Notes: generated from the letters alone by a model not told the origin. Positions 4,377 through 32,000 are shown, numbered from the stretch's first letter. The stretch: 32,000 nt of DNA from Trichodesmium erythraeum IMS101 (GCF_000014265.1 NC_008312.1:6870001-6902000), one strand, 5' to 3'. Made by a program: numbers and translations.

Positions 4377-4883
4377 AATTTTTTGTATGATTTATTTAAG
4401 GGGATATTTTGAGTTTTGGTCTCTAAATGGCCATGAATGCTCTTAAACATGTTTCCATGGCATTCCGAAAGCAAATACTCTGAGTCATTATATGATAATA
4501 AATATGTGGATAAAAGGGTAAGCCTAAGCAGAATAAAGGATAAAGGATAATGATAAGTTTACTGAAAATTTGGCAAGGATAATTGTGGTTTTCAATTGGC
4601 ATATTTTGAGGTTTTTGATGAGCCAAAATAAATAATTTATTTAGCTATTAATTGCATACTTAGATTAATGTCTTAAGAAGATATTGAGAGTAGGAAAGTT
4701 GTATGCGGCGTTCCTACATTATTTCTAATGCTCAGGTTATCGGAAGAGGCTATTAATTTTTGCTGTCAGTTTTTTATCTAGCCAGAAAAAAAGATACGGC
4801 TGGTTTGGGTAAAATGATGTTTGGCTGTTATGGTATTATGTAGTGTGATTATCCAAAAAATTAGACCATGTAGACTATGTATA

Positions 4884-4946
4884 ACCTAAAACCTGCTACC
4901 TAAAATCTAACATCTAAAACCTGCTACCTAAAACCTAATACCTAAC
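4884..4946. repeat. Nine tandem heptamers (ACCTAAA/ACCTGCT/ATCTAAC...), STRR-like, ending 30 bp upstream of the CHAT gene start
   Basis: Read directly: ACCTAAA ACCTGCT ACCTAAA ATCTAAC ATCTAAA ACCTGCT ACCTAAA ACCTAAT ACCTAAC. The tract contains a perfect 20-bp direct repeat CTAAAACCTGCTACCTAAAA at 4886-4905 and 4914-4933. Confidence 0.85.
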
Positions 4947-4975: not shown

Positions 4976-7900
4976 GTGGACAACAAACGCATAGAAGCAT
5001 ACACCAACCTCGTTAACCAACTGCTAACTTCCCCCAGCGGTGAGAAAGCAAAAATCCTCGAAACAAACCTAGACTTGGTAGATGAAGGGTTACTGGAAAT
5101 AATGGAACTTTACGCACAACAACTGGCAGAAAACGATGACGAAAATGCTCAAAACGCTGCTAATTTTTTACGTCATCTCAGGAGTCAGCTTGTAGAGTTA
5201 CTAGAAACTTCAGAATTTTCTCCCTCAACTCATTACTCATCGGCAGAATATTTGAATTTCTGGAGGGAGGTGTTGCTGGCAACTGCAGAAAGCAAAGGTG
5301 ACCCGAAAGTTGTCTACCCACTCCTACAAGAAAACTTAGATAAACTTGATGATAACTTTGCTGATATATTGCGAAACTGGGCAACTGCTAAATTTTCTGA
5401 AGTGGAGGCGGGTGTAGCAAAAAGCATTGCTATAGATATTATTTATTTCAGTGTCTACATTAAGCAATTTCCTCTGGGCAGCAAAGCAAACAACATGGAA
5501 ATTAGCATTGCAGGTTATGAAGTAGTGCTAAAAGTTTTTACATATAAGAGTCACCGGGAAATTTGGGCAATGACTCAAAATAATCTCGGCGCTGCCTACA
5601 GTGACAGAATAAGGGGAGACAAAGCCGAAAATATTGAAGCTGCCATTGCTGCATACCAACAAGCTTTGCTGGTGTACACCCAAACTGACTTCCCCATGGA
5701 CTGGGCAATGACTCAAAATAATCTCGGCAATGCCTACAGTGACAGAATAAGGGGAAACAAAGCCGAAAATATTGAAGCTGCCATTGCTGCATACGAACAA
5801 GCTTTGCTGGTGTACACCCAAACTGACTTCCCCATGGACTGGGCAAGAACTCAAAATAATCTCGGCATTGCCTACAGTAACAGAATAAGGGGAGACAAAG
5901 CCGAAAATATTGAAGCTGCCATTGCTGCATTCCAACAAGCTTTGCTGGTGTACACCCAAACTGACTTCCCCATGGAATGGGCAAGAACTCAAAATAATCT
6001 CGGCATTGCCTACAGTAACAGAATAAGGGGAGACAAAGCCGAAAATATTGAAGCTGCCATTGCTGCATGCCAACAAGCTTTGCTGGTGCGCACCCAAACT
6101 GACTTCCCCATCAACTGGGCAGCAACTCAAAATAATCTCGGCGCTGCCTACAGAGACAGAATAAGGGGAGACAAAGCCGAAAATATTGAAGCCGCCATTG
6201 CTGCATGCCAACAAGCTTTGCTGGTGTACACCCAAACAGACTTCCCCATCAACTGGGCAAGAACTCAAAATAATCTCGGCATTGCCTACAGTGACAGAAT
6301 AAGGGGAGACAAAGCCGAAAATATTGAAGCTGCCATTGCTGCATACCAACAAGCTTTGCTGGTGCGCACCCAAACAGACTTCCCCATCAACTGGGCAACA
6401 ATTCAAAATAATCTCGGCGCTGCCTACAGAGACAGAATAAGGGGAGACAAAGCCGAAAATATTGAAGCTGCCATTGCTGCATACGAACAAGCTTTGCTGG
6501 TGCGCACCCAAACTGACTTCCCCATGGACTGGGCAAGAACTCAAAATAATCTCGGCAATGCCTACAGTGACAGAATAAGGGGAGACAAAGCCGAAAATAT
6601 TGAAGCCGCCATTGCTGCATACCAACAAGCTTTGCTGGTGCGCACCCAAACTGACTTCCCCATGGACTGGGCAATGACTCAAAATAATCTCGGCAATGCC
6701 TACAGTGACAGAATAAGGGGAGACAAAGCGGAAAATATTGAAGCTGCCATTGCTGCATACCAACAAGCTTTGCTGGTGCGCACCCAAACTGACTTCCCCA
6801 TGGACTGGGCAGGAACTCAAAATAATCTCGGCAATGCCTACAGTGACAGAATAAGGGGAGACAAAGCCGAAAATATTGAAGCCGCCATTGCTGCATACGA
6901 ACAAGCTTTGCTGGTGTACACCCTAGAAGCAGACCCCATCAAACATCTCGGAACCACCCGCAACCTAGGCAACCTATATTTCGACAACCAAAACTGGCAA
7001 CTCGCCGCCGACAACTATAAAAAAGCCATAACCGCAGTGGAACTCAGCCGCAGTTGGGCAACCACCGACGATCGCCGCCAGGAAATACTCAAAGAAAACA
7101 TCAATATCTATAACAAAGCCATCCAAGCATACATACACCTAAAAAAGTTAGAACAAGCACTAGAAATAGCCGAGCGCAGTCAAGCCCGAAACCTAGTCCA
7201 ACTCCTCACCAACCGCGACTTAGTTCCTCAAGATAATGTACCCCCAGAAATAACCCAACAACTTCAACAACAACAAAAAGAAATTCGCGTCAACAAAGGA
7301 GAACTAGAGAAAGTCAGAAAACAACTATCACAGCAAAACACAGAGGAAAAAACATCATTAGAAAAATCTGAGAAACAGCTAAACGAAGAATTACAGAAAC
7401 TCAGACAGCAGTTAGAAAAAACATTCAATCAAATTCAGGAATACGACCCCACCTTCCGCCTGACCCAGGAAGTGCAACCAATAGCTTTTAGAGAAATTCA
7501 GCAACTTGCCACAGAACAGCAGACAGCAATTATTGAGTGGTATATTATGGGAGAAAAATTCCTAGCATTTATCCTAGTTCCCCCAACCTCAACAGCAACA
7601 TCAGAATTATTTATGTGGCAGTCTACCGAAGACGACAGTAAAAATTTAGAGGAGTGGGTAAAAGAATATCTAGAAAAATATTATGAACTTCAGGAAGCAG
7701 AGCTAGAAAATCAGGAAAAAGCCAAAAAATTACAACAAGAATGGGAGACAAAAATAACAACTCGCCTAGAAAAACTAGGAGAAATTTTACATATAAAAGA
7801 AATACTCCAACCCATCCTCGAAAGTGAATGTCAAAGACTCACCTTAATTCCCCATTCCTTCCTACATTTTCTCCCCCTTCATATCTTACCCATTAATAAC

Positions 7901-8719
7901 CCAGAAAATAGTCAAGAAAACCCAGAAAAAAAATATCTCCAGGATTATTTTAACCAGGGAGTAAGCTATGCTCCAAGCTGCCAAATATTGCAAAAAGTTA
8001 GAGAACGAAAAAACCAAGAATTTCAGAGTTTATTTGCCATTCAAAACCTCAACGACACCGAAAATTCACCCCACTTAGGCATTATTTCAATAATCAAAAA
8101 ACAATTTAATAATGTGGAAATAATCCAAGAAAATCAAGCCACAAAATCAGCATTAATTAACCATCCCAAATTATCCCTTGCTAACTCCATATTATTCTTC
8201 TGTCATGGAGTATTTAACCCTACTTATCCCCTAGATTCAGGATTAATATTAGCCGATGAAAAACTCACATTAGGAGATATTATTCAAAACCTAAATTTAA
8301 GCAAATGTCGCCTAGTAACCCTAGCCGCTTGCGAAACAGGATTAACAGATATCTTCAATCAAGAATATGTAGGTTTACCCAGCGGTTTTCTCCTAGCAGG
8401 AAGTACAAATATTATTGCCAGTCTTTGGAGTGTGAGAGTTGATGCAACAGCGTTATTAATGTTAAGATTATATCAAGAATTAAAAAAATATGATAATATA
8501 ATAATAGCCTTAAAAACAGCCCAAAACTGGTTAAGAGATATAAAGGTGCAAGAATTAAAAGAGTGGGTCAGAAAGTCCCCTCTAAAAATAAAAATTCATT
8601 GGCAAGAAGAATTAGAAAAAACATTTACTAAAATGGAAAATCTAGAAGGAGCCAATTGTAAACCATATAACTCACCTTATTTTTGGGCTGGTTTTTGTGT
8701 TGTCGGAAAAGGAGAATAA
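4976..8719 (+). CDS. TPR-repeat protein with C-terminal CHAT (caspase-like) protease domain
   Basis: The 1247-aa ORF starts with GTG. It has an N-terminal helical region followed by ten near-identical 46-aa TPR-like repeats (WAxTQNNLGxAYSDRIRGDKAENIEAAIAAYQQALLVxTQTDFPxx). A K/E/Q-rich coiled-coil linker leads to a C-terminal CHAT-like domain with a candidate catalytic His (ILFFCHGVF) and Cys (LVTLAACETG). Confidence 0.9.
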   Translation: MDNKRIEAYTNLVNQLLTSPSGEKAKILETNLDLVDEGLLEIMELYAQQLAENDDENAQNAANFLRHLRSQLVELLETSEFSPSTHYSSAEYLNFWREVLLATAESKGDPKVVYPLLQENLDKLDDNFADILRNWATAKFSEVEAGVAKSIAIDIIYFSVYIKQFPLGSKANNMEISIAGYEVVLKVFTYKSHREIWAMTQNNLGAAYSDRIRGDKAENIEAAIAAYQQALLVYTQTDFPMDWAMTQNNLGNAYSDRIRGNKAENIEAAIAAYEQALLVYTQTDFPMDWARTQNNLGIAYSNRIRGDKAENIEAAIAAFQQALLVYTQTDFPMEWARTQNNLGIAYSNRIRGDKAENIEAAIAACQQALLVRTQTDFPINWAATQNNLGAAYRDRIRGDKAENIEAAIAACQQALLVYTQTDFPINWARTQNNLGIAYSDRIRGDKAENIEAAIAAYQQALLVRTQTDFPINWATIQNNLGAAYRDRIRGDKAENIEAAIAAYEQALLVRTQTDFPMDWARTQNNLGNAYSDRIRGDKAENIEAAIAAYQQALLVRTQTDFPMDWAMTQNNLGNAYSDRIRGDKAENIEAAIAAYQQALLVRTQTDFPMDWAGTQNNLGNAYSDRIRGDKAENIEAAIAAYEQALLVYTLEADPIKHLGTTRNLGNLYFDNQNWQLAADNYKKAITAVELSRSWATTDDRRQEILKENINIYNKAIQAYIHLKKLEQALEIAERSQARNLVQLLTNRDLVPQDNVPPEITQQLQQQQKEIRVNKGELEKVRKQLSQQNTEEKTSLEKSEKQLNEELQKLRQQLEKTFNQIQEYDPTFRLTQEVQPIAFREIQQLATEQQTAIIEWYIMGEKFLAFILVPPTSTATSELFMWQSTEDDSKNLEEWVKEYLEKYYELQEAELENQEKAKKLQQEWETKITTRLEKLGEILHIKEILQPILESECQRLTLIPHSFLHFLPLHILPINNPENSQENPEKKYLQDYFNQGVSYAPSCQILQKVRERKNQEFQSLFAIQNLNDTENSPHLGIISIIKKQFNNVEIIQENQATKSALINHPKLSLANSILFFCHGVFNPTYPLDSGLILADEKLTLGDIIQNLNLSKCRLVTLAACETGLTDIFNQEYVGLPSGFLLAGSTNIIASLWSVRVDATALLMLRLYQELKKYDNIIIALKTAQNWLRDIKVQELKEWVRKSPLKIKIHWQEELEKTFTKMENLEGANCKPYNSPYFWAGFCVVGKGE
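5564..6943 (+). repeat. Intragenic tandem repeat, 10 x 138 bp (46 codons), inside the CHAT gene
   Basis: The TGG of each WAxTQNNLG unit falls at 5564+138n (checked at 5564, 5702 and 6806). Units 8 and 9 differ at only 4 of 138 nt by hand comparison. Confidence 0.95.
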
Positions 8720-8722
8720 ATT

Positions 8723-8750
8723 AAGTAAAAAGTAAAAAGTAAAAACTAAA
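8723..8750. repeat. Tandem heptamers (AAGTAAA x3, AACTAAA) immediately after the CHAT gene stop
   Basis: Read directly: AAGTAAA AAGTAAA AAGTAAA AACTAAA, starting 4 nt after the TAA stop at 8717-8719. Confidence 0.8.
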
Positions 8751-9043
8751 AAATTAGACTTGAAAAATTAAAAACTTTGAGAGAAAAGTCACTTCAGGAA
8801 ATTATTTGACATAGCTACAAAAGACCGTAACTATCTCTACACCCCTAGTATAATTACAGCCTTTTCAAATTGATCAACAACATCGCCATAACCAAAACCT
8901 TAAACTGACCCTCCATGGAACCTCCCTAAAGAATAAAAAATCAAAAAAGGTAAAAACCTGTTGATAAATTAGTTGTAGATTTTTTCCAATTATTTTGACT
9001 TTAACCCTTACTTATACTTAGCTACTCATTAAATCAATTATTT

Positions 9044-21113: not shown

Positions 21114-23210
21114 TTATGGTATTCGCCAAACTTTGAGAGTTTGATCTAGACTACCACTTATTAAGGTTTTGCCATCGGGAGTAATAGCAAGAGAACTTAT
21201 TTGTTGTGAATGACCAAAAAATGTCTGTATTTTTTCTTTGGTAATTAGATTCCAAATAGTAATTTTGTCACCACTACAAGCTATCGTTTGGCTATCAGGA
21301 CTGAAAACAAGAGCTTTAACTTTACCTACATTTGCTTTAATTACAGTTTTCTCTTTTCTTGTATTAAAATCCCATAGTTTAATGGTACCATCATTACTCC
21401 CGCTAGCTAAGATTTGATTATCTGGACTAATAGCGATCGCATTAACTGCCTGTGTATGACCTTGTAAAGTTTGTCTGCGAGTAAGTGTACTTGGATCCCA
21501 CAATCTAATGGTACCGTCACTACTACCAGTAAATAAAGTTTCCCCATCTCGGCTAAAAGCTAGAGCATTTACTTCAGATTCCTTATCTGGTAAGCGAGTA
21601 AGTATTCGACTACCTGTTTGAATGTTCCACAGCTTCATTAATTTATCACTGCCAACACTTACTAATGTCTGTCCATCTGGGCTAATGGCAACTGTATTCA
21701 GTTGACCATTATGACCTAGGATATCCTTTAAGAGTTTACTATTTTTGAGATCCCATATTTTGATAGTTTTGTCTGTACTGCCACTTACTAATATTTCATC
21801 ATTAGGACTTATTGCCAGGGTAGTTATTTTATCTGCATGAGCATCTTTAATATTGTTTTTTAGTTGCCGAGTCTTGAGGTTCCAAATTTTGATGGTATTT
21901 AAGCCACTACTGACTAAAGTTTGACCATCTTGTGTCAGAGCGATCGCATTTACTTCTCCAATATAACTATCTAAGGTTTTGTCTAAAAATCGACTACTTT
22001 TCAAACCTCGCAATAAAAAAACCGGATTAGTCGGAAATATGTTGTAGCGCCAAAAGCCATAAAACTGAAAAGTGGCCCCTCCCAATAGCAACATTGTTAA
22101 CCCTATGACTAGGTTATTTATTAATCTAATTATTGACTTATTACTAAATGTTTTTGTAGTTGTTTTTGTTTTTGTTTTTGTTTTTGTTTTGAATTTTGTC
22201 TTGACTTTTTGCTTAGTTTTAGTTCTTTCTGTTAATACTTTTGGATCTTCCCTAGTTGCATAACTTTGTTGACCAGCAGTATAACTCCGAGAATTATCAG
22301 TTATGCTATTTTTTGTTTTGATCTCTGCCAGACACTTCAAAATCACTTTTGGTTTTTGAGGTCTATTACCCGGAAAAGGTGCCATTAAATAATCTATGAC
22401 ATCTTTCAATTCTGTTGATATTTCAGGGGCATATTTTTGCCATTGTAGCTTTCCGGAGCGTGGATTTTCGGGAAAACTTGTTGGGGATTTACCTGTTAAT
22501 AAATATACAAAAGTACGTCCTAAAGCAAAAAAATCTGATTGAGGTACTGCTTTGCCATTCGTTTGCTCTGGAGCTGTATAACCTGGAGAAACAATTCCTG
22601 TAACATTTTGCCCAAGATCAACTTTTACCAAGTAAGTCTCAGATACCTCTCTCACTGTGCCAAAATCTATCAACACCAATTGACCATCTGGCTTGCGCAT
22701 GATGTTTTGAGGCTTAATATCTCGATGGAAATACTTTTTATTATGAACTTTGTCCAATATTTCCGATAATTGTGTGAGCCAATCTATTGCTTGAGTTTGA
22801 TTGATGGACTTATGGCGTCGACTCTTCATCCAATCCATCAAATTCGAGCCGTGGATAAATTCCATTACCAGGCAGTGTAAAGGCTCTTTACTATCTGCTG
22901 TTTTGAATGTAAAATAACCATCTTTCTCTATTTTAGGAATACCTGGATTTCGTAAACTGATAAGTACCTGTGCTTCCTGTTGAAACAGAGATATAGCTTT
23001 TGGATGATTTTTCAGTAATACCTTAAGAACTTTTTGTACCCCTCGATCTTCTATAAGATAAGTTTTACCAAAACCTCCACCCCCAAGGGGCTTGATAATA
23101 CGATACCGATTTTGCAGCACCAGTTGTGAGCCACATTGGCAACAGATGCGTTGACCACTATTAAGTGGATCGGAGGGGTCGGGGCAATTGGGATTAAGGC
23201 AGTAACTCAC
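21114..23210 (-). CDS. Ser/Thr protein kinase with N-terminal 4-Cys zinc-ribbon prefix, KT-rich linker, TM helix and C-terminal WD40 repeats
   Basis: GTG start. The 4-Cys prefix is CLNPNCPDP...CCQCGS. Kinase motifs are GGGGFGKTY, HRDIKPQN, DFG and TAPE. The linker reads KTKQKVKTKFKTKTKTKTKTTTKT and the TM helix is LINNLVIGLTMLLLGGATF. About seven WD40 units follow (repeated IKIWDL, LWDP and IKLWDF patterns). Confidence 0.9.
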   Translation of the reverse strand: MSYCLNPNCPDPSDPLNSGQRICCQCGSQLVLQNRYRIIKPLGGGGFGKTYLIEDRGVQKVLKVLLKNHPKAISLFQQEAQVLISLRNPGIPKIEKDGYFTFKTADSKEPLHCLVMEFIHGSNLMDWMKSRRHKSINQTQAIDWLTQLSEILDKVHNKKYFHRDIKPQNIMRKPDGQLVLIDFGTVREVSETYLVKVDLGQNVTGIVSPGYTAPEQTNGKAVPQSDFFALGRTFVYLLTGKSPTSFPENPRSGKLQWQKYAPEISTELKDVIDYLMAPFPGNRPQKPKVILKCLAEIKTKNSITDNSRSYTAGQQSYATREDPKVLTERTKTKQKVKTKFKTKTKTKTKTTTKTFSNKSIIRLINNLVIGLTMLLLGGATFQFYGFWRYNIFPTNPVFLLRGLKSSRFLDKTLDSYIGEVNAIALTQDGQTLVSSGLNTIKIWNLKTRQLKNNIKDAHADKITTLAISPNDEILVSGSTDKTIKIWDLKNSKLLKDILGHNGQLNTVAISPDGQTLVSVGSDKLMKLWNIQTGSRILTRLPDKESEVNALAFSRDGETLFTGSSDGTIRLWDPSTLTRRQTLQGHTQAVNAIAISPDNQILASGSNDGTIKLWDFNTRKEKTVIKANVGKVKALVFSPDSQTIACSGDKITIWNLITKEKIQTFFGHSQQISSLAITPDGKTLISGSLDQTLKVWRIP
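22162..22190. repeat. In-frame hexanucleotide microsatellite (GTTTTT)4.8 encoding the (KT)n linker of the kinase
   Basis: Read directly: GTTTTT units begin at 22162, 22168, 22174, 22180 and 22186. Confidence 0.9.
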
Positions 23211-26710: not shown

Positions 26711-27391
26711 GGTGAGTATACTATTCTTTGTTTAAGCCTTTTTTCCTAATAGTTATTTATGTAAAATAGTTCAGATAAAATAAAGTATTAGTTAACTATT
26801 CTAATTTTTTTATTCCCTGTAAGTTGACTATGTTATTCTATATACTCAATGTTCGCGAATAGAACTGTTTTATATATAGATTTTTTACGTTTTTTTCAAG
26901 CATTTTTTCCTGATAATATTTAAGATTAAATTAGGTATTAATTAACTATTATCAATCTTTTTTCCTAATGAATTAACAATTTTATTCTATATTTTCAGGA
27001 ATAAAACATAGCTTTACAGGGATTTTTATACGGAAAACTGATTAGTATATAGTATTTTTTAAAGTAGTTTAATATTAATAATAGTCAATATTTAATCAAG
27101 TCTTAATTAATATAAATAGAAAAATTGAAAAGGATTTTAAGAGGAAGAAACGGATTAATATATAGTATTTTTTTAAAGGATTTTGCTATTAATAAACGGG
27201 TTAGTATTTAGTATATAGTGATTTTTTGAAGTAGTTTAATATTGCTCATAGCCAAGATTAAATAAAGTATTAATTAAATAGAAAATTTTGATTGCATATA
27301 AATTGAATATATTATTCTATATTTTCATAAGTTAAATATTACTAAATCAAGATTTTTCCACGGATAAACGGATTAGTATATAGTTATTTTT
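26711..27391. repeat. Four to five decayed tandem copies (about 48-165 bp each) of the hsdR 3' end plus its 3' flank
   Basis: The genuine gene end contains GATTAGTATATAGTTATTTTTCTAAGCATTTTTATCTTGCTCGTAGTCAAGATTAAATAAAGTATTAATTAACCATTC (27371 onward). Recognisably related strings recur starting near 27199, 27152, 27041, 26870 and 26715. One example is TGCTCATAGCCAAGATTAAATAAAGTATTAATTAAATAG at 27243-27281. Confidence 0.7.
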
Positions 27392-30367
27392 CTAAGCATT
27401 TTTATCTTGCTCGTAGTCAAGATTAAATAAAGTATTAATTAACCATTCTCGAAAACTTTTATTACCTGTAAATTGACGATATTCTTCTATATGTTCACGG
27501 GTAGAACGCCGTAATTCTTGATTGAATTTATTTTCAAAGGTAAGTTTGGCATTTTGCGGATCGCTATAATTTATAGCATTTTTATACTCCCCATTTCCTC
27601 TGACTTTTTCTGGCAACTCCTCTAATAAAAATTTCCATGCCCTACCCTCATTTTGCCAAACAATATTACCACCGAAGCGGTTATTAAATTCTTCGATTAT
27701 TTGACTAACTTTATCTGACCTACTTTGAGAATTTCCACTAACAATATTCTTGGCAATGGGAGATAGGGTATTTTCTCCACTTAAATTAATACTTTGACTA
27801 GCTAGAAGCTCTACTCGATAACTCTCAATATCCACACTATTAATAATTCCTGCCGATAAATCAGAATTATCTAATTGTGGCAGTTTATTAACTAACAATT
27901 TCAGAAAACTATTTAAACTCTCCCAATTGGAATTTTTAAAACTTTTTACTTGCACCAAAAATTGATAATTTTTCACAAAACTCCTGGCTTTACTTTTAAA
28001 CTCTATTTTTTCCTCCTCTAGCAAATCACAATTATATTTTTCCACACAAATATCTAAAATTGACTCCCAATTTTCCCGTGACTCACAATTCAAAAAAAGC
28101 TTCATAAATTTCTCTACATTTTCTTGAGAATAAATCTGAAAACTTGCTAAACTATCCTCTAAATCATAGAGGCGATCGCTATCTGTTTCTTCACTCAAAA
28201 TAGTTGTTTTATAATAAGGTTCAAAAGCTCTCTGAATTTCATCAGCAGAATTAACAAAATCTAAAACAAAAGTATCTGTTTTTCCCTCACAAGAACGGTT
28301 TAACCTAGACAAAGTTTGTACTGCTTTCACATCAGATAAAACTTTATCCACATACATAGTATGTAACAACGGTTCATCAAAACCAGTTTGATACTTATTA
28401 GCCACAATTAAAAACCTATATTTACTATCATTAAATTTTTCTGTAATCTTACTACTAGAAAATCCATTCATAGAAGACTCATTTTCCTTTTTGCCGTCTA
28501 TTTCTTTACTTCCAGAAAAAGCAACAATAGTCTGATAATCAGATTTTTTTTCTCTCAAATATTTATCAAAAGCTTTTTTATAATAAATCGCACTTTTAAT
28601 ACTATTACTAACGACCATAGCCTTAGCTTTTCCATTAATTTTTCCCTGAGCAATTACCTTTGATAAAAAATGCTCAATCATCACTTCTGACTTTTTGCGG
28701 ATACTCTCTTGATCCTCTTCTACATATTGTTTTAACTTCTTTTTTGCTTGTTTACTATCAAATTCAGGGTCGTCTATAACTTTCTTCTCTAATCGACAAT
28801 AGGTTTTGTAGGTCGTATAATGCTGCAAAACATTCAGAATAAATCCTTCTTCAATTGCCTGCTTCATGGAATAACTATGGAACGGATAAAATTTTCCATC
28901 TTCTGGATTTTTGACACCAAATAACTCTAAAGTTTTATTCTTTGGCGTGGCAGTAAATGCATAATAATTAGCATTTGGGCAAAGTTTTTGTGACTCAATA
29001 ATTCGGATTATTTTATCCTCTGTGGTTTCTTCTACTTCCGAATCTTTTTTGCTCAAAGATTCACTCATGCTGGCTGCACTTTTGCCAGTTTGACTCGAAT
29101 GTGCTTCGTCGATAATAATGGCAAACTTGTGATCGGATAAAGATTGAATTTCTTTGACAACATATGGAAATTTTTGCACTGTTGTAATAATAATTTTCCG
29201 TTTGTTTTCCAAGGCTGATTTTAATTTTTTGCTGTTTTTGGTTGCTTCTACGACTTTGTCTTCTTGAGCGAATTGTTGAATATTTTCCCTAATTTGTTTA
29301 TCTAAAATTTTGCGGTCTGTCACGACTAAAACTGAATCAAAAATATTTTCTTTCTCGGTAATATTTTTCAGTTCTACGAGTTGATGACTCAGCCAGGTTA
29401 TAGAATTACTTTTGCCGGAACCTGCAGAATGTTGGATTAAGTAGCGGTTGCCGACTCCATGTTTTTTTGCACTTGTTAAAAGTTGCTTGACTAGGTCGAG
29501 TTGATGGTAGCGGGGGAAGATTAGTTTTAGCTTTTTGACTGTTTTTTTGTCTTTGTCTTTATCTTCTTCTTTTTCTATCAGTTGGGCGTAATGTTCGATG
29601 ATGTTTCCGAGACTTTCTATGGTTAAAATTTCTTTCCACAAATAATCTGTTTTGATGTGGTTGGGGTTGGGAGGGTTCCCTGCTGTATCCGGAAAAGGTA
29701 GATCAGGATTTGATTTTTTGCCTTTGTTGAATGGTATGAATTCTGTATTTTTGCCGTTGAGTTTTGTTGTCATCCAAACTTCATCGGCGTCGAGGGCAAA
29801 ATGTACTAGGCAACGTTTGAATTGAAATAATAATTCTCTGGGGCGTCGGTCATTTTTATATTGGTTTATGGCGTCTCGAAAGTTTTGTTTGGTTAGTTGG
29901 TTTTTTAGCTCGAAGGTAATAACTGGTAAACCGTTTATAAAAATTACTAAGTCGAGGGAGAAGTTACGGTTTTCTTTGTATTTTAGTTGGCGAGTGACTG
30001 AAAAAACGTTTTCTTGGAAATTTTCGATAGTGTCGGGGTTGAGTTGGGAAGTGGGAAGTTTATAGTAAAGTTCGAGGTGGGTTTCTCCAGTTTTGATACC
30101 TTGACGTAATATATTGACTATACTTTTCTCTTCTATTTGGTGGTGGAGGCGTTCATAAAGTTTTTTCTCCCAGTTGGCGCCGTGGTAGTTAGAAATTTCT
30201 GTTAATTTTTCAGGTTGGGTGTTTTGGAGAAACTGGAAAAGTTTCTCAGTGTCGATACAGTAGGTTTGGTCGTAGTCTTTGGGGTTACCTTCTAAATATT
30301 GGCAGTCGTCGATGAGACTTTGATAGATAATATTTTCGAGACCTTTTTCAGTAATATCGGAAGCCAT
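27392..30367 (-). CDS. hsdR: Type I restriction endonuclease R subunit (HsdR), apparently intact
   Basis: The 991-aa product has an N-terminal PD-(D/E)xK nuclease region (LDLVIFINGLPVITFELK). SF2 motor motifs are HSAGSGKSNS (Walker A), IIIDEAHSSQ (DEAH), FTATP and YQTGFDEP. Confidence 0.85.
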   Translation of the reverse strand: MASDITEKGLENIIYQSLIDDCQYLEGNPKDYDQTYCIDTEKLFQFLQNTQPEKLTEISNYHGANWEKKLYERLHHQIEEKSIVNILRQGIKTGETHLELYYKLPTSQLNPDTIENFQENVFSVTRQLKYKENRNFSLDLVIFINGLPVITFELKNQLTKQNFRDAINQYKNDRRPRELLFQFKRCLVHFALDADEVWMTTKLNGKNTEFIPFNKGKKSNPDLPFPDTAGNPPNPNHIKTDYLWKEILTIESLGNIIEHYAQLIEKEEDKDKDKKTVKKLKLIFPRYHQLDLVKQLLTSAKKHGVGNRYLIQHSAGSGKSNSITWLSHQLVELKNITEKENIFDSVLVVTDRKILDKQIRENIQQFAQEDKVVEATKNSKKLKSALENKRKIIITTVQKFPYVVKEIQSLSDHKFAIIIDEAHSSQTGKSAASMSESLSKKDSEVEETTEDKIIRIIESQKLCPNANYYAFTATPKNKTLELFGVKNPEDGKFYPFHSYSMKQAIEEGFILNVLQHYTTYKTYCRLEKKVIDDPEFDSKQAKKKLKQYVEEDQESIRKKSEVMIEHFLSKVIAQGKINGKAKAMVVSNSIKSAIYYKKAFDKYLREKKSDYQTIVAFSGSKEIDGKKENESSMNGFSSSKITEKFNDSKYRFLIVANKYQTGFDEPLLHTMYVDKVLSDVKAVQTLSRLNRSCEGKTDTFVLDFVNSADEIQRAFEPYYKTTILSEETDSDRLYDLEDSLASFQIYSQENVEKFMKLFLNCESRENWESILDICVEKYNCDLLEEEKIEFKSKARSFVKNYQFLVQVKSFKNSNWESLNSFLKLLVNKLPQLDNSDLSAGIINSVDIESYRVELLASQSINLSGENTLSPIAKNIVSGNSQSRSDKVSQIIEEFNNRFGGNIVWQNEGRAWKFLLEELPEKVRGNGEYKNAINYSDPQNAKLTFENKFNQELRRSTREHIEEYRQFTGNKSFREWLINTLFNLDYEQDKNA

Positions 30368-30370
30368 TTG

Positions 30371-30410
30371 GGTTATTAGTTATCAGTTATAAGTTATAAG
30401 TTATCAGTTT
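30371..30410. repeat. About 5.5 tandem heptamers (GGTTATT AGTTATC AGTTATA AGTTATA AGTTATC AGTTTT) between the hsdR start codon and the 104-bp array
   Basis: Read directly. The run begins 4 nt upstream of the hsdR ATG (complement of 30365-30367). Confidence 0.8.
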
Positions 30411-30412
30411 TG

Positions 30413-32000
30413 GCAAAGTCGGAAAATTCAGCACATATATATATAGATATGACTGGGAAAATTTTGGGAAAAATATCGGTTAGCTTCAGCCATGAAACCC
30501 AAAGGATAGGAATTTTGCAAAGTCGGAAAATTTAGCACATATATATATAGATATGACTGGGAAAAATTTGGGAAAAATATCGGTTAGCTTCAGCCATGAA
30601 ACCTAAACGATAGGAATTTGGCAAAGTCGGAAAATTTAGCACACATATATATAGGTATGACTAGGAAAATTTTGGGAAAAATATCGGTTAGCTTCAGCCA
30701 TGAAACCCAAAGGATAGGAATTTTGCAAAGTGGGAAAATTTAGCACACATATATATAGATATGACTGGGAAAAATTTGGGAAAAATATCGGTTAGCTTCA
30801 GCCATGAAACCTAAAGGATAGGAATTTTGCAAAGTGGGAAAATTCAGCACATATATATATAGATATGACTGGGAAAAATTTGGGAAAAATATCGGTTAGC
30901 TTCAGCCACGAAACCCAAAGGATAGGAATTTTGCAAAGTGGGAAAATTCAGCACACATATATATAGATATGACTGGGAAAATTTTGGGAAAAATATCGGT
31001 TAGCTTCAGCCATGAAACCCAAAGGATAGGAATTTGGCAAAGTGGGAAAATTCAGCACATATATATATAGATATGACTGGGAAAATTTTGGGAAAAATAT
31101 CGGTTAGCTTCAGTCATGAAACCTAAATGATAGGAATTTTGCAAAGTCGGAAAATTCAGCACATATATATATAGATATGACTGGGAAAAATTTGGGAAAA
31201 ATATCGGTTAGCTTCAGCCATGAAACCCAAAGGATAGGAATTTGGCAAAGTCGGAAAATTTAGCACACATATATATAGATATGACTGGGAAAAATTTGGG
31301 AAAAATATCGGTTAGCTTCAGCCATGAAACCTAAACGATAGGAATTTGGCAAAGTCGGAAAATTTAGCACATATATATATAGATATGACTGGGAAAATTT
31401 TGGGAAAAATATCGGTTAGCTTCAGCCATGAAACCTAAATGATAGGAATTTTGCAAAGTGGGAAAATTCAGCACATATATATATAGATATGACTGAGAAA
31501 ATTTTGGGAAAAATATCGGTTAGCTTCAGCCATGAAACCCAAACGATAGGAATTTTGCAAAGTCGGAAAATTTAGCACACATATATATAGATATGACTGG
31601 GAAAATTTTGGGAAAAATATCGGTTAGCTTCAGCCATGAAACCTAAATGATAGGAATTTTGCAAAGTGGGAAAATTCAGCACATATATATATAGATATGA
31701 CTGAGAAAATTTTGGGAAAAATATCGGTTAGCTTCAGCCATGAAACCCAAAGGATAGGAATTTTGCAAAGTGGGAAAATTCAGCACATATATATATAGAT
31801 ATGACTGGGAAAATTTTGGGAAAAATATCGGTTAGCTTCAGCCATGAAACCTAAATGATAGGAATTTTGCAAAGTGGGAAAATTCAGCACATATATATAT
31901 AGATATGACTGGGAAAAATTTGGGAAAAATATCGGTTAGCTTCAGCCATGAAACCCAAACGATAGGAATTTTTCAAAAGTGGAAAATTCAGCACATATAT
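30413..32000. repeat. Tandem array of a 104-bp unit, 15 full copies plus a 16th cut by the window end
   Basis: Unit starts (GCAAAGT) fall at 30413, 30517, 30621, 30725, 30829, 30933, 31037, 31141, 31245, 31349, 31453, 31557, 31661, 31765 and 31869. A variant start lies at 31973. The period is exactly 104 bp throughout. Confidence 0.95.

Follow-up and report, generated by a model that had tools for sequence, protein, structure and literature searches.

A 104-bp tandem array upstream of hsdR in Trichodesmium erythraeum IMS101: probably a locus-specific minisatellite kept by concerted evolution

Tandem and interspersed arrays of short DNA units have been described in several bacterial settings. 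The mycobacterial interspersed repetitive units (MIRUs) are 40-100-bp units that lie between operon genes and are dispersed over dozens of loci, usually in few copies. The centromere-like sopC region of plasmid F is an array of 12 units of 43 bp. In the marine filamentous cyanobacterium Trichodesmium erythraeum IMS101, seven tandem repeats in an array of more than 6 kb yield the most abundant non-coding RNA (ncRNA) (PMC4143802), and in heterocystous cyanobacteria (Nostocales) the small RNA NsiR1 is encoded by a tandem gene array upstream of hetF (Ionescu et al. 2010, summarised in PMC6596454). Direct TAACTGA repeats just upstream of start codons form a further known class in Beggiatoaceae and cyanobacteria (MacGregor, PMC4679880). 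Here we describe an array of 104-bp units at the end of a 32,000-nt stretch of the T. erythraeum IMS101 chromosome (NC_008312.1:6870001-6902000; the window, with positions counted from its first letter). The array is located 5' to hsdR, the gene for the R subunit of a Type I restriction endonuclease. It is probably a non-coding, locus-specific minisatellite that resembles a variable-number tandem repeat (VNTR), sits in the hsdS-hsdR spacer of a chromosomal Type I restriction-modification (RM) locus and is kept by concerted evolution.

Tandem Repeats Finder reports a single array of period 104 at 30409-32000 (15.3 copies, 95% matches, 0% indels, score 2811). Cutting at 30413+104n yields 15 full units of equal length (30413..31972; consensus in hsdR sense, on the minus strand, AAAATTCCTATCCTTTGGGTTTCATGGCTGAAGCTAACCGATATTTTTCCCAAAATTTTCCCAGTCATATCTATATATATATGTGCTGAATTTTCCCACTTTGC) and a 28-nt partial sixteenth unit (31973..32000) that is cut by the window end. 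Both results agree with an earlier note on this DNA, which had described 15 indel-free copies and a partial sixteenth at 30413-32000. The 15 full units have a mean pairwise identity of 95.7% (range 92.3-99.0%), and 12 of the 104 unit positions are variable, seven with common alternative states and five with rare ones; slicing recovered the same list of positions as had been given before. The common states are C/G at position 8 (7 and 8 copies), C/T at position 17 (9 and 6), T/C at position 24 (10 and 5), T/A at position 50 (9 and 6), C/T at position 88 (8 and 7), G/C/T at position 92 (7, 4 and 4) and T/G at position 104 (11 and 4). The rare variants fall at positions 35, 43, 44 (two copies, units 10 and 12), 78 and 81. 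The longest open reading frame (ORF) of the array in any frame has 41 aa, consistent with the previous statement that none reaches 60 aa.

The variants are thoroughly reshuffled among the copies. For the six common biallelic sites, all four gametes, that is all allele combinations, are found in 15 of 15 site pairs, so that what had been noticed for positions 8 and 17 extends to every such pair. Adjacent units differ at 4.8 positions as against 4.45 in random order; neighbours are thus no more similar than other units. The array is still unfinished at base 32000, and its final partial unit is a divergent copy of an edge, or ancestral, type, for which reason the window end is probably close to the distal edge of the array. 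The form of a short core motif in this edge unit, TTTTCCACTTTTG, is common to the distal-most array unit of a second Trichodesmium, to Dapis and to the lineage L014; the internal window units carry the derived form TTTTCCCACTTTG.

The gene order around the array is best followed in relatives. The closest named relatives of HsdR are encoded by Trichodesmium metagenome-assembled genomes (MAGs; 80-89% amino acid identity) and by Okeania, Dapis and Hydrocoleum (80-82%), and the gene order downstream of hsdR is unchanged in all relatives. In Trichodesmium sp. MAG_R02 (L008), whose hsdR 5' part has 95.4% DNA identity to the window, an N6-methylase gene further upstream is followed by an hsdS-type gene, the 104-bp array, a short run of heptamers and hsdR. 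The array of this MAG (2.8 and 2.4 copies on either side of a scaffold gap, with 1-2% indels among its units) fills the hsdS-hsdR spacer. The order in Okeania sp. KiyG1 (L006) is hsdM-hsdS-TnpB-element-hsdR, and Nostoc and Leptolyngbya relatives (about 59% identity) have contiguous hsdM-hsdS-hsdR genes with an hsdS-hsdR gap of 2-120 bp, in which no repeats were found. From the order in L008 and Okeania and the contiguous genes of Nostoc and Leptolyngbya, it follows that the array occupies the hsdS-hsdR spacer of an ancestrally compact operon.

Repeats are also present at this place in other genera, with different units. Dapis sp. BLCC M126 (L010) has at least two copies of a 101-bp unit on a contig that begins within the repeat, and Hydrocoleum sp. 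CS-953 (L012) has at least two copies of a 91-bp unit, also at a contig end. In Okeania sp. KiyG1 there are two diverged copies, a distal A and a proximal B, which lie 95 bp apart and have only the 21-nt core in common (90% identity). Okeania segment A is co-linear with the units of Hydrocoleum and Dapis (73-74% identity), and segment B corresponds to the Trichodesmium unit (67% over 94 columns). Neighbouring segments, each beginning with the common core, therefore appear to have been amplified separately in different lineages. Unit identity is 94-100% within a lineage and 65-77% between genera, at a synonymous divergence (dS) of hsdR between genera of about 0.38.

How old is the array, and what keeps its units alike? 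The two-state sites of the window also vary in L008, in both units of the contig L001 and in the proximal unit of L009, a TARA contig. Since these polymorphisms are common to several lineages, they predate the lineage split; the array did not arise in a very recent burst. The earlier note had offered a very recent amplification as one explanation of the preservation, which is not supported, as the same sites segregate in the array of another species and in other strains. The tandem state itself is older than the split of several genera. The four-gamete result, the old shared polymorphisms and the ancestral edge unit together fit unequal exchange with short-tract conversion. Concerted evolution by these two processes is what the variant pattern indicates, and the view that conversion or unequal exchange rather than passive decay had been at work is borne out by the four gametes, the lack of a neighbour effect, the ancestral edge unit and the homogeneity of units within each lineage.

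Constraint, the other explanation offered at first for the preservation of the array, finds little in its favour over the whole unit. The absence of indels is statistically unremarkable because only about 13 mutational events (12 sites) are seen among 15 copies, and arrays in relatives have indels and periods of 101 and 91 bp. The unit consensus of the window differs from that of L008 at 7 of 104 positions, four of which are polymorphic in the window, leaving 3-7% fixed or near-fixed differences. At fourfold-degenerate sites the two differ by 5% in the adjacent hsdR and by 17-23% in the flanking genes. With a unit divergence of 3-7% against 5% at fourfold sites of hsdR, the units therefore show no conservation beyond that of neutral sites in this segment.

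The array also leaves a trace in other assemblies. The 991-aa HsdR protein was found identical on 11 other contigs. Among the matches listed (one NCBI assembly and four Logan runs), five of five contigs stop inside a unit, 75-254 nt upstream of hsdR, and TARA contigs with 95% and 93% identical HsdR likewise stop within a unit; over the NCBI assembly, the four Logan runs and two TARA metagenomes, the contig ends lie 52-254 nt upstream of hsdR. Such breaks are what a repeat exceeding the read length produces, so the array exists in nature, and it accounts for the systematic break of short-read assemblies at the hsdR locus. Its copy number and the order of its variants come from one assembly.

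A sequence of events that would lead to this arrangement can be proposed. The common ancestor of Trichodesmium, Okeania, Dapis and Hydrocoleum may have gained an hsdS-hsdR spacer with two cores of about 21-27 nt, some 95 bp apart. A pair of short direct repeats at a spacing of about 100 bp is a classic substrate of unequal exchange. Unequal homologous exchange or replication slippage between the cores would have duplicated the ~100 bp between them, and further unequal exchange would have expanded the duplication, with Trichodesmium amplifying the hsdR-proximal B segment (104 bp) and the A segment being amplified in Hydrocoleum (91 bp) and in Dapis (101 bp). Frequent exchange and short-tract conversion would then hold the unit length and reshuffle a few old two-state variants, and edge copies would escape homogenisation. 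We infer the origin by comparison and the maintenance from the variant pattern. In view of the compact hsdM-hsdS-hsdR operon of distant relatives and the lack of a promoter-like site in or after the array, the array most likely forms part of a transcript, as an intercistronic spacer or a long untranslated leader of hsdR. If it matters, the array would uncouple hsdR expression from that of hsdMS and probably lower it, and would reiterate a cis-element upstream of hsdR. Such a cis-regulatory effect on hsdR is possible; the reiteration is most likely neutral or nearly so.

Compared with the described systems, the array belongs with the bacterial VNTRs and minisatellites. It consists of head-to-tail repeats of about 100 bp with high identity at a non-coding intercistronic site, and it bears the signs of unequal exchange and concerted evolution. 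MIRU-type loci share with it the direct head-to-tail units of about 100 bp, the operon-like intercistronic position, the presence of short ORFs only, the small number of variable sites and expansion by unequal exchange or slippage. Unlike MIRUs, the array is not dispersed: in 132 kb (the window and 16 loci), no further copy of unit or core was found beyond the region upstream of hsdR, and the unit, present in at least 15 copies, is confined to the hsdS-hsdR spacer, which speaks against a MIRU-like interspersed family. A dispersed or mobile element and a plasmid or phage origin were likewise rejected, given the lack of other copies in these 132 kb and of any match to the unit in plasmid, phage or viral contig collections. 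Exact-pattern scans of genome and metagenome collections were empty; the first pattern was too strict and misses L008 by one base. With sopC and plasmid iterons the array has in common an indel-free tandem arrangement of medium-sized units, each with a short conserved motif. It differs in its chromosomal housekeeping context (ribBA, phoX, chlM-like), in the lack of nearby par or rep genes and of a strong inverted repeat, and in the lack of plasmid and phage matches, so that a plasmid or phage iteron or centromere array was rejected on its syntenic chromosomal context and the empty plasmid, phage and viral searches.

As it stands, the array is an ordinary bacterial minisatellite, if an unusually large and tidy one. 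It provides a clean prokaryotic case of concerted evolution, with ancestral edges, polymorphisms that cross species and different registers in sister genera, and it could serve as a VNTR marker for strain typing in Trichodesmium populations. In the few kilobases sampled from this clade there are further intergenic tandem repeats of 130-200 bp, and the intergenic regions of the clade are rich in tandem repeats of 90-200 bp.

The part of the unit that may carry a function is the core. The hsdR-proximal copy, GCTGAATTTTCCGACTTTGCCAAAA, lies at 30408..30432 on the minus strand; the core recurs every 104 bp to 31864-31888, with an edge-type copy at about 31967-32000. Its cross-genus consensus, CTGCnrAAtTTTTCC(n2-3)TTT(T)GsCAAAT, spans 21-27 nt and is conserved in five lineages (Trichodesmium, Dapis, Hydrocoleum, Okeania and L014). 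Relative conservation between genera is limited to this core, and the rest of the unit is not conserved. As a sign of constraint this is suggestive, not compelling; a protein-binding platform built on the core is possible because the conserved motif exists.

Several observations weigh against a purely neutral minisatellite. Within the same 132 kb, the core profile has matches upstream of hsdR only, always in hsdR sense. Three common polymorphisms of the array that lie within the core fall on positions that also vary between genera, which hints at a selected cis-element. Instead of marking a mutational hot spot, the amplification of one locus in at least two registers could be the outcome of selection for a high number of copies, and 15 or more copies at 95% identity far exceed the other repeats nearby. 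The promoter scan covered consensus sites of the sigma-70 type only. Nothing that we could read from the sequence indicates that the array makes RNA or protein or acts as a promoter, and a function could still exist.

The main rival to the minisatellite reading, which we consider unlikely on balance, is a reiterated cis-regulatory platform that would bind a regulator of hsdR. The core would be an operator or promoter-proximal site of hsdR, selected in 15 or more copies that titrate or cooperatively bind the regulator, and array length would tune or switch restriction as in a copy-number contingency locus. The core (AAtTTTTCC..TTTTGsCAAAT) does contain a -35-like hexamer (TTGCCA/TTGGCA) and a small TTTGCAAA palindrome, and the last Trichodesmium core lies about 48 nt from the hsdR ATG. 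At a between-genus dS of about 0.38, its blocks TTTTCC, TTTG and AAA are invariant and the tails of the units are barely alignable; the occurrence of the core in five lineages, its constant orientation and place, and its repeated amplification in different registers argue in the same direction. However, no sigma-70-type promoter is predicted in the array of any lineage, and TTTCAT/TTTCCC, which follows the -35-like hexamer 17 nt downstream, is not -10-like. No regulator gene is evident nearby, nor is there a second copy of the core near hsdM in Okeania. The helical phase differs between lineages (104, 101 and 91 bp), with curvature predicted in Trichodesmium alone, and about 15 of 24 core columns are conserved, which goes only modestly beyond drift.

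A bolder version of this idea, which we regard as quite doubtful, takes the whole spacer of this marine Oscillatoriales clade as a selected, copy-number-variable module of restriction control whose core has been re-amplified in different registers in separate genera. Array length would then set the amount of HsdR relative to the methylase, through leader length or decay or through titration of a core-binding protein, and the unusually divergent 5' end of hsdR (dN/dS, the ratio of non-synonymous to synonymous rates, of at least 1 between conspecific strains) would belong to the same fast-evolving module. Type I systems otherwise vary through hsdS shuffling and simple-sequence repeats. If array length did control the dosage of the restriction subunit, such systems would gain a contingency control of a new kind, and polyploid filaments a heritable, reversible restriction dial.

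It is also conceivable, though distinctly improbable, that the array is real and its copy number and mosaic order are partly a product of assembly, through a consensus over polyploid copies or mis-resolution of the repeat. Every other assembly of the locus collapses, breaks or is gapped in the array, the second unit of L001, which has an identical hsdR protein, differs from the second unit of the window at four variant sites, and an array that grows by local duplication would not usually lack all similarity between neighbours. Yet the same fixed two-state positions vary in independent assemblies and in another species, the random errors and indels typical of uncorrected long reads are missing, and the rare variant at position 44 in the non-adjacent units 10 and 12 looks biological.

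Tandem small-RNA genes, or a highly expressed ncRNA derived from the repeats, have precedents in cyanobacteria (NsiR1; PMC6596454) and in the seven repeats of ~970 bp of T. erythraeum (PMC4143802), and the units are well preserved and of one orientation; even so, we hold this explanation to be very improbable. For the array, Rfam gave no family at gathering score or at E<=10. On neither strand do two-unit RNA folds surpass shuffles (z = +0.44 on the plus and -1.38 on the minus strand), DNA folds and leader folds are no better than shuffles, and the unit has no strong inverted repeat; a structured RNA and a DNA hairpin or cruciform were rejected on these grounds. On both strands of the array region, 0 sigma-70-like promoters (8.2 expected) and 0 intrinsic terminators (1.2 expected) were found, no unit has a promoter-like site or terminator-like hairpin, and the arrays of relatives likewise lack sigma-70-type promoters and terminators. 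In addition, the unit beyond the core is not conserved between genera. The constraint on an RNA that had been suggested for the array is thus matched by no RNA family, fold signal, or promoter or terminator consensus. With NsiR1 the array shares its form, short direct repeats lined up in tandem upstream of a cyanobacterial gene, but neither the Rfam family nor a per-unit promoter or terminator consensus, and both the host group and the neighbouring gene are different; an NsiR1-type array was rejected on the lack of an Rfam match, the 0 promoters and terminators (in a scan for sigma-70 consensus only) and the lack of a stable fold. The ncRNA array of T. erythraeum (PMC4143802) is alike in lineage at the level of the genus, in being a large intergenic array beside a gene and in having no similarity outside the lineage. 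Set against the 104-bp unit by description, it has a unit of 736-973 bp, a mapped transcription start site and a transcript of ~260 nt; the 104-bp unit is without promoter-like site or fold signal.

A small peptide encoded in each unit on the hsdR strand (21 aa with ATG as start, 36 aa with GTG; MAEANRYFSQNFPSHIYIYMC) is barely credible: every unit has the short ORF, with the stop retained despite a TGA/TAA polymorphism, and a 23-aa ORF lies at a similar place in the Dapis unit, but the polymorphisms are mostly non-synonymous (N/I, P/L, I/T, M/V, A/T), Hydrocoleum, Okeania and L014 have no counterpart, none of 10 ORF variants occurs in a collection of 15 billion proteins, and no Shine-Dalgarno-like sequence is present.

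Other candidates were rejected more directly. The unit is not a duplicated 5' end of hsdR, as local alignment is no better than for shuffles. A CRISPR array is excluded by repetition of the full 104-bp period with no unique spacers, and adenine mutagenesis by a diversity-generating retroelement by the variant types (C/G, C/T, T/A and G/C/T), which do not fit. An oriC or cluster of cyanobacterial DnaA boxes (TTTTCCACA) was discarded, with 18 matches in the window against 15.6 expected, and in the array a match in the edge unit only, with one mismatch. Curvature arising from 104 bp as 10 helical turns was considered too. By prediction the Trichodesmium array is compact (0.43, against 0.76 +/- 0.16 for shuffled units); the Dapis and Hydrocoleum periods correspond to 9.6 and 8.7 helical turns, and curvature is predicted only in Trichodesmium. 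This candidate was set aside because other segments of the window resemble the array in this respect and straight arrays are predicted for Dapis and Hydrocoleum.

Only heptamer repeats separate the last unit from the hsdR ATG. This 38-bp run of 5.4 heptamers (30372..30409, minus strand; TAACTGA/TAACTTA in hsdR sense) ends 5 nt before the start codon. It resembles the TAACTGA class (PMC4679880) in its heptamers, forward orientation and distance of a few nucleotides from the start codon and can be counted as a member; this covers the flank alone, and the 104-bp units are outside the class. Heptamers upstream of hsdR also occur in Okeania (L006 9974-9999), at L008 3446-3483 and at L014 73-92, being conserved in Okeania, in the Trichodesmium relatives L008, L009 and L013, and in L014. 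At the same spot Dapis has CTGACTC in four copies, and Hydrocoleum one copy only. A perfect hexamer microsatellite (ATATAG x 9.7, L010 308-365) upstream of hsdR in Dapis has grown out of the unit's short (TA)n/TAGATA stretch, so that repeats with periods of 2, 6, 7 and about 100 bp are found in this one spacer. An 8-bp inverted repeat, GTTGGGTT...AACCCAAC, is found in the hsdR leader of L014 (44-68), Hydrocoleum (L012 290-314) and Okeania (L006 9914-9961), with one mismatch in the Dapis counterpart; in Trichodesmium, TTTGGGTT is present in every unit and AACCCAAA adjoins the hsdR ATG. A conserved leader hairpin formed by this repeat is predicted, but it was rejected as not significant against shuffles and mismatched in Dapis.

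hsdR itself (27392..30367, minus strand) encodes a protein of 991 aa, identified by Pfam (HSDR_N, ResIII, SWI2_SNF2 and T1R_D3-like) and by homologues. Comparison of the window with the conspecific TARA contig L009 gives 48 non-synonymous against 6 synonymous differences in this gene, a dN/dS of about 1.9, as compared with about 0.25 between genera. The mismatches with L009 concentrate at the array-side 5' end (29441-30367), with 26 and 13 per 500 bp, against 0-6 elsewhere, which could be due to positive selection, relaxed constraint or a recombination boundary. In L008 (3488-7535) hsdR is rearranged: the 5' 1.2 kb is joined straight to the 3' end (window 29137-27796 missing), and after it come copies of repeats and another hsdR end of lower similarity. 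The locus is either a degraded gene or a MAG chimera. The RM locus of Okeania KiyG1 (L006 6178-9462) also looks degraded, with hsdM split and fused to hsdS and a truncated HsdR of 786 aa, and a TnpB gene (OrfB_IS605 and Cas12f-like TNB) is inserted between hsdS and the element upstream of hsdR.

On the 3' side of hsdR, where decayed repeats had been reported, five tandem copies of ~150-167 bp with 61-87% identity are present (26726..27500), the last of which takes in the end of the hsdR coding sequence (~110 nt). They have no sequence relation to the 104-bp unit and resemble the T. erythraeum ncRNA array, whose repeats likewise contain a duplicated gene 3' end. Hydrocoleum has a comparable array of ~130-158-bp units downstream of hsdR (L012 3692-4301).

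The rest of the window is chromosomal, with ribBA, phoX, a glucose/sorbosone dehydrogenase, a chlM-like methyltransferase, OprB porins and a WD40 kinase. It also contains a 138-bp tandem repeat (5564-6923, 9.9 copies, 94% matches) within an ORF on the plus strand (4976-8719) for a 1247-aa TPR_10/TPR_12 and CHAT-domain protein, in which it encodes ordinary TPR-type repeats of 46 aa. The other intergenic microsatellites of the window are AACCTAA x 9 (4883-4945), AAGTAAA x 4.3 (8723-8752) and TGTTTT x 7 (22149-22199).

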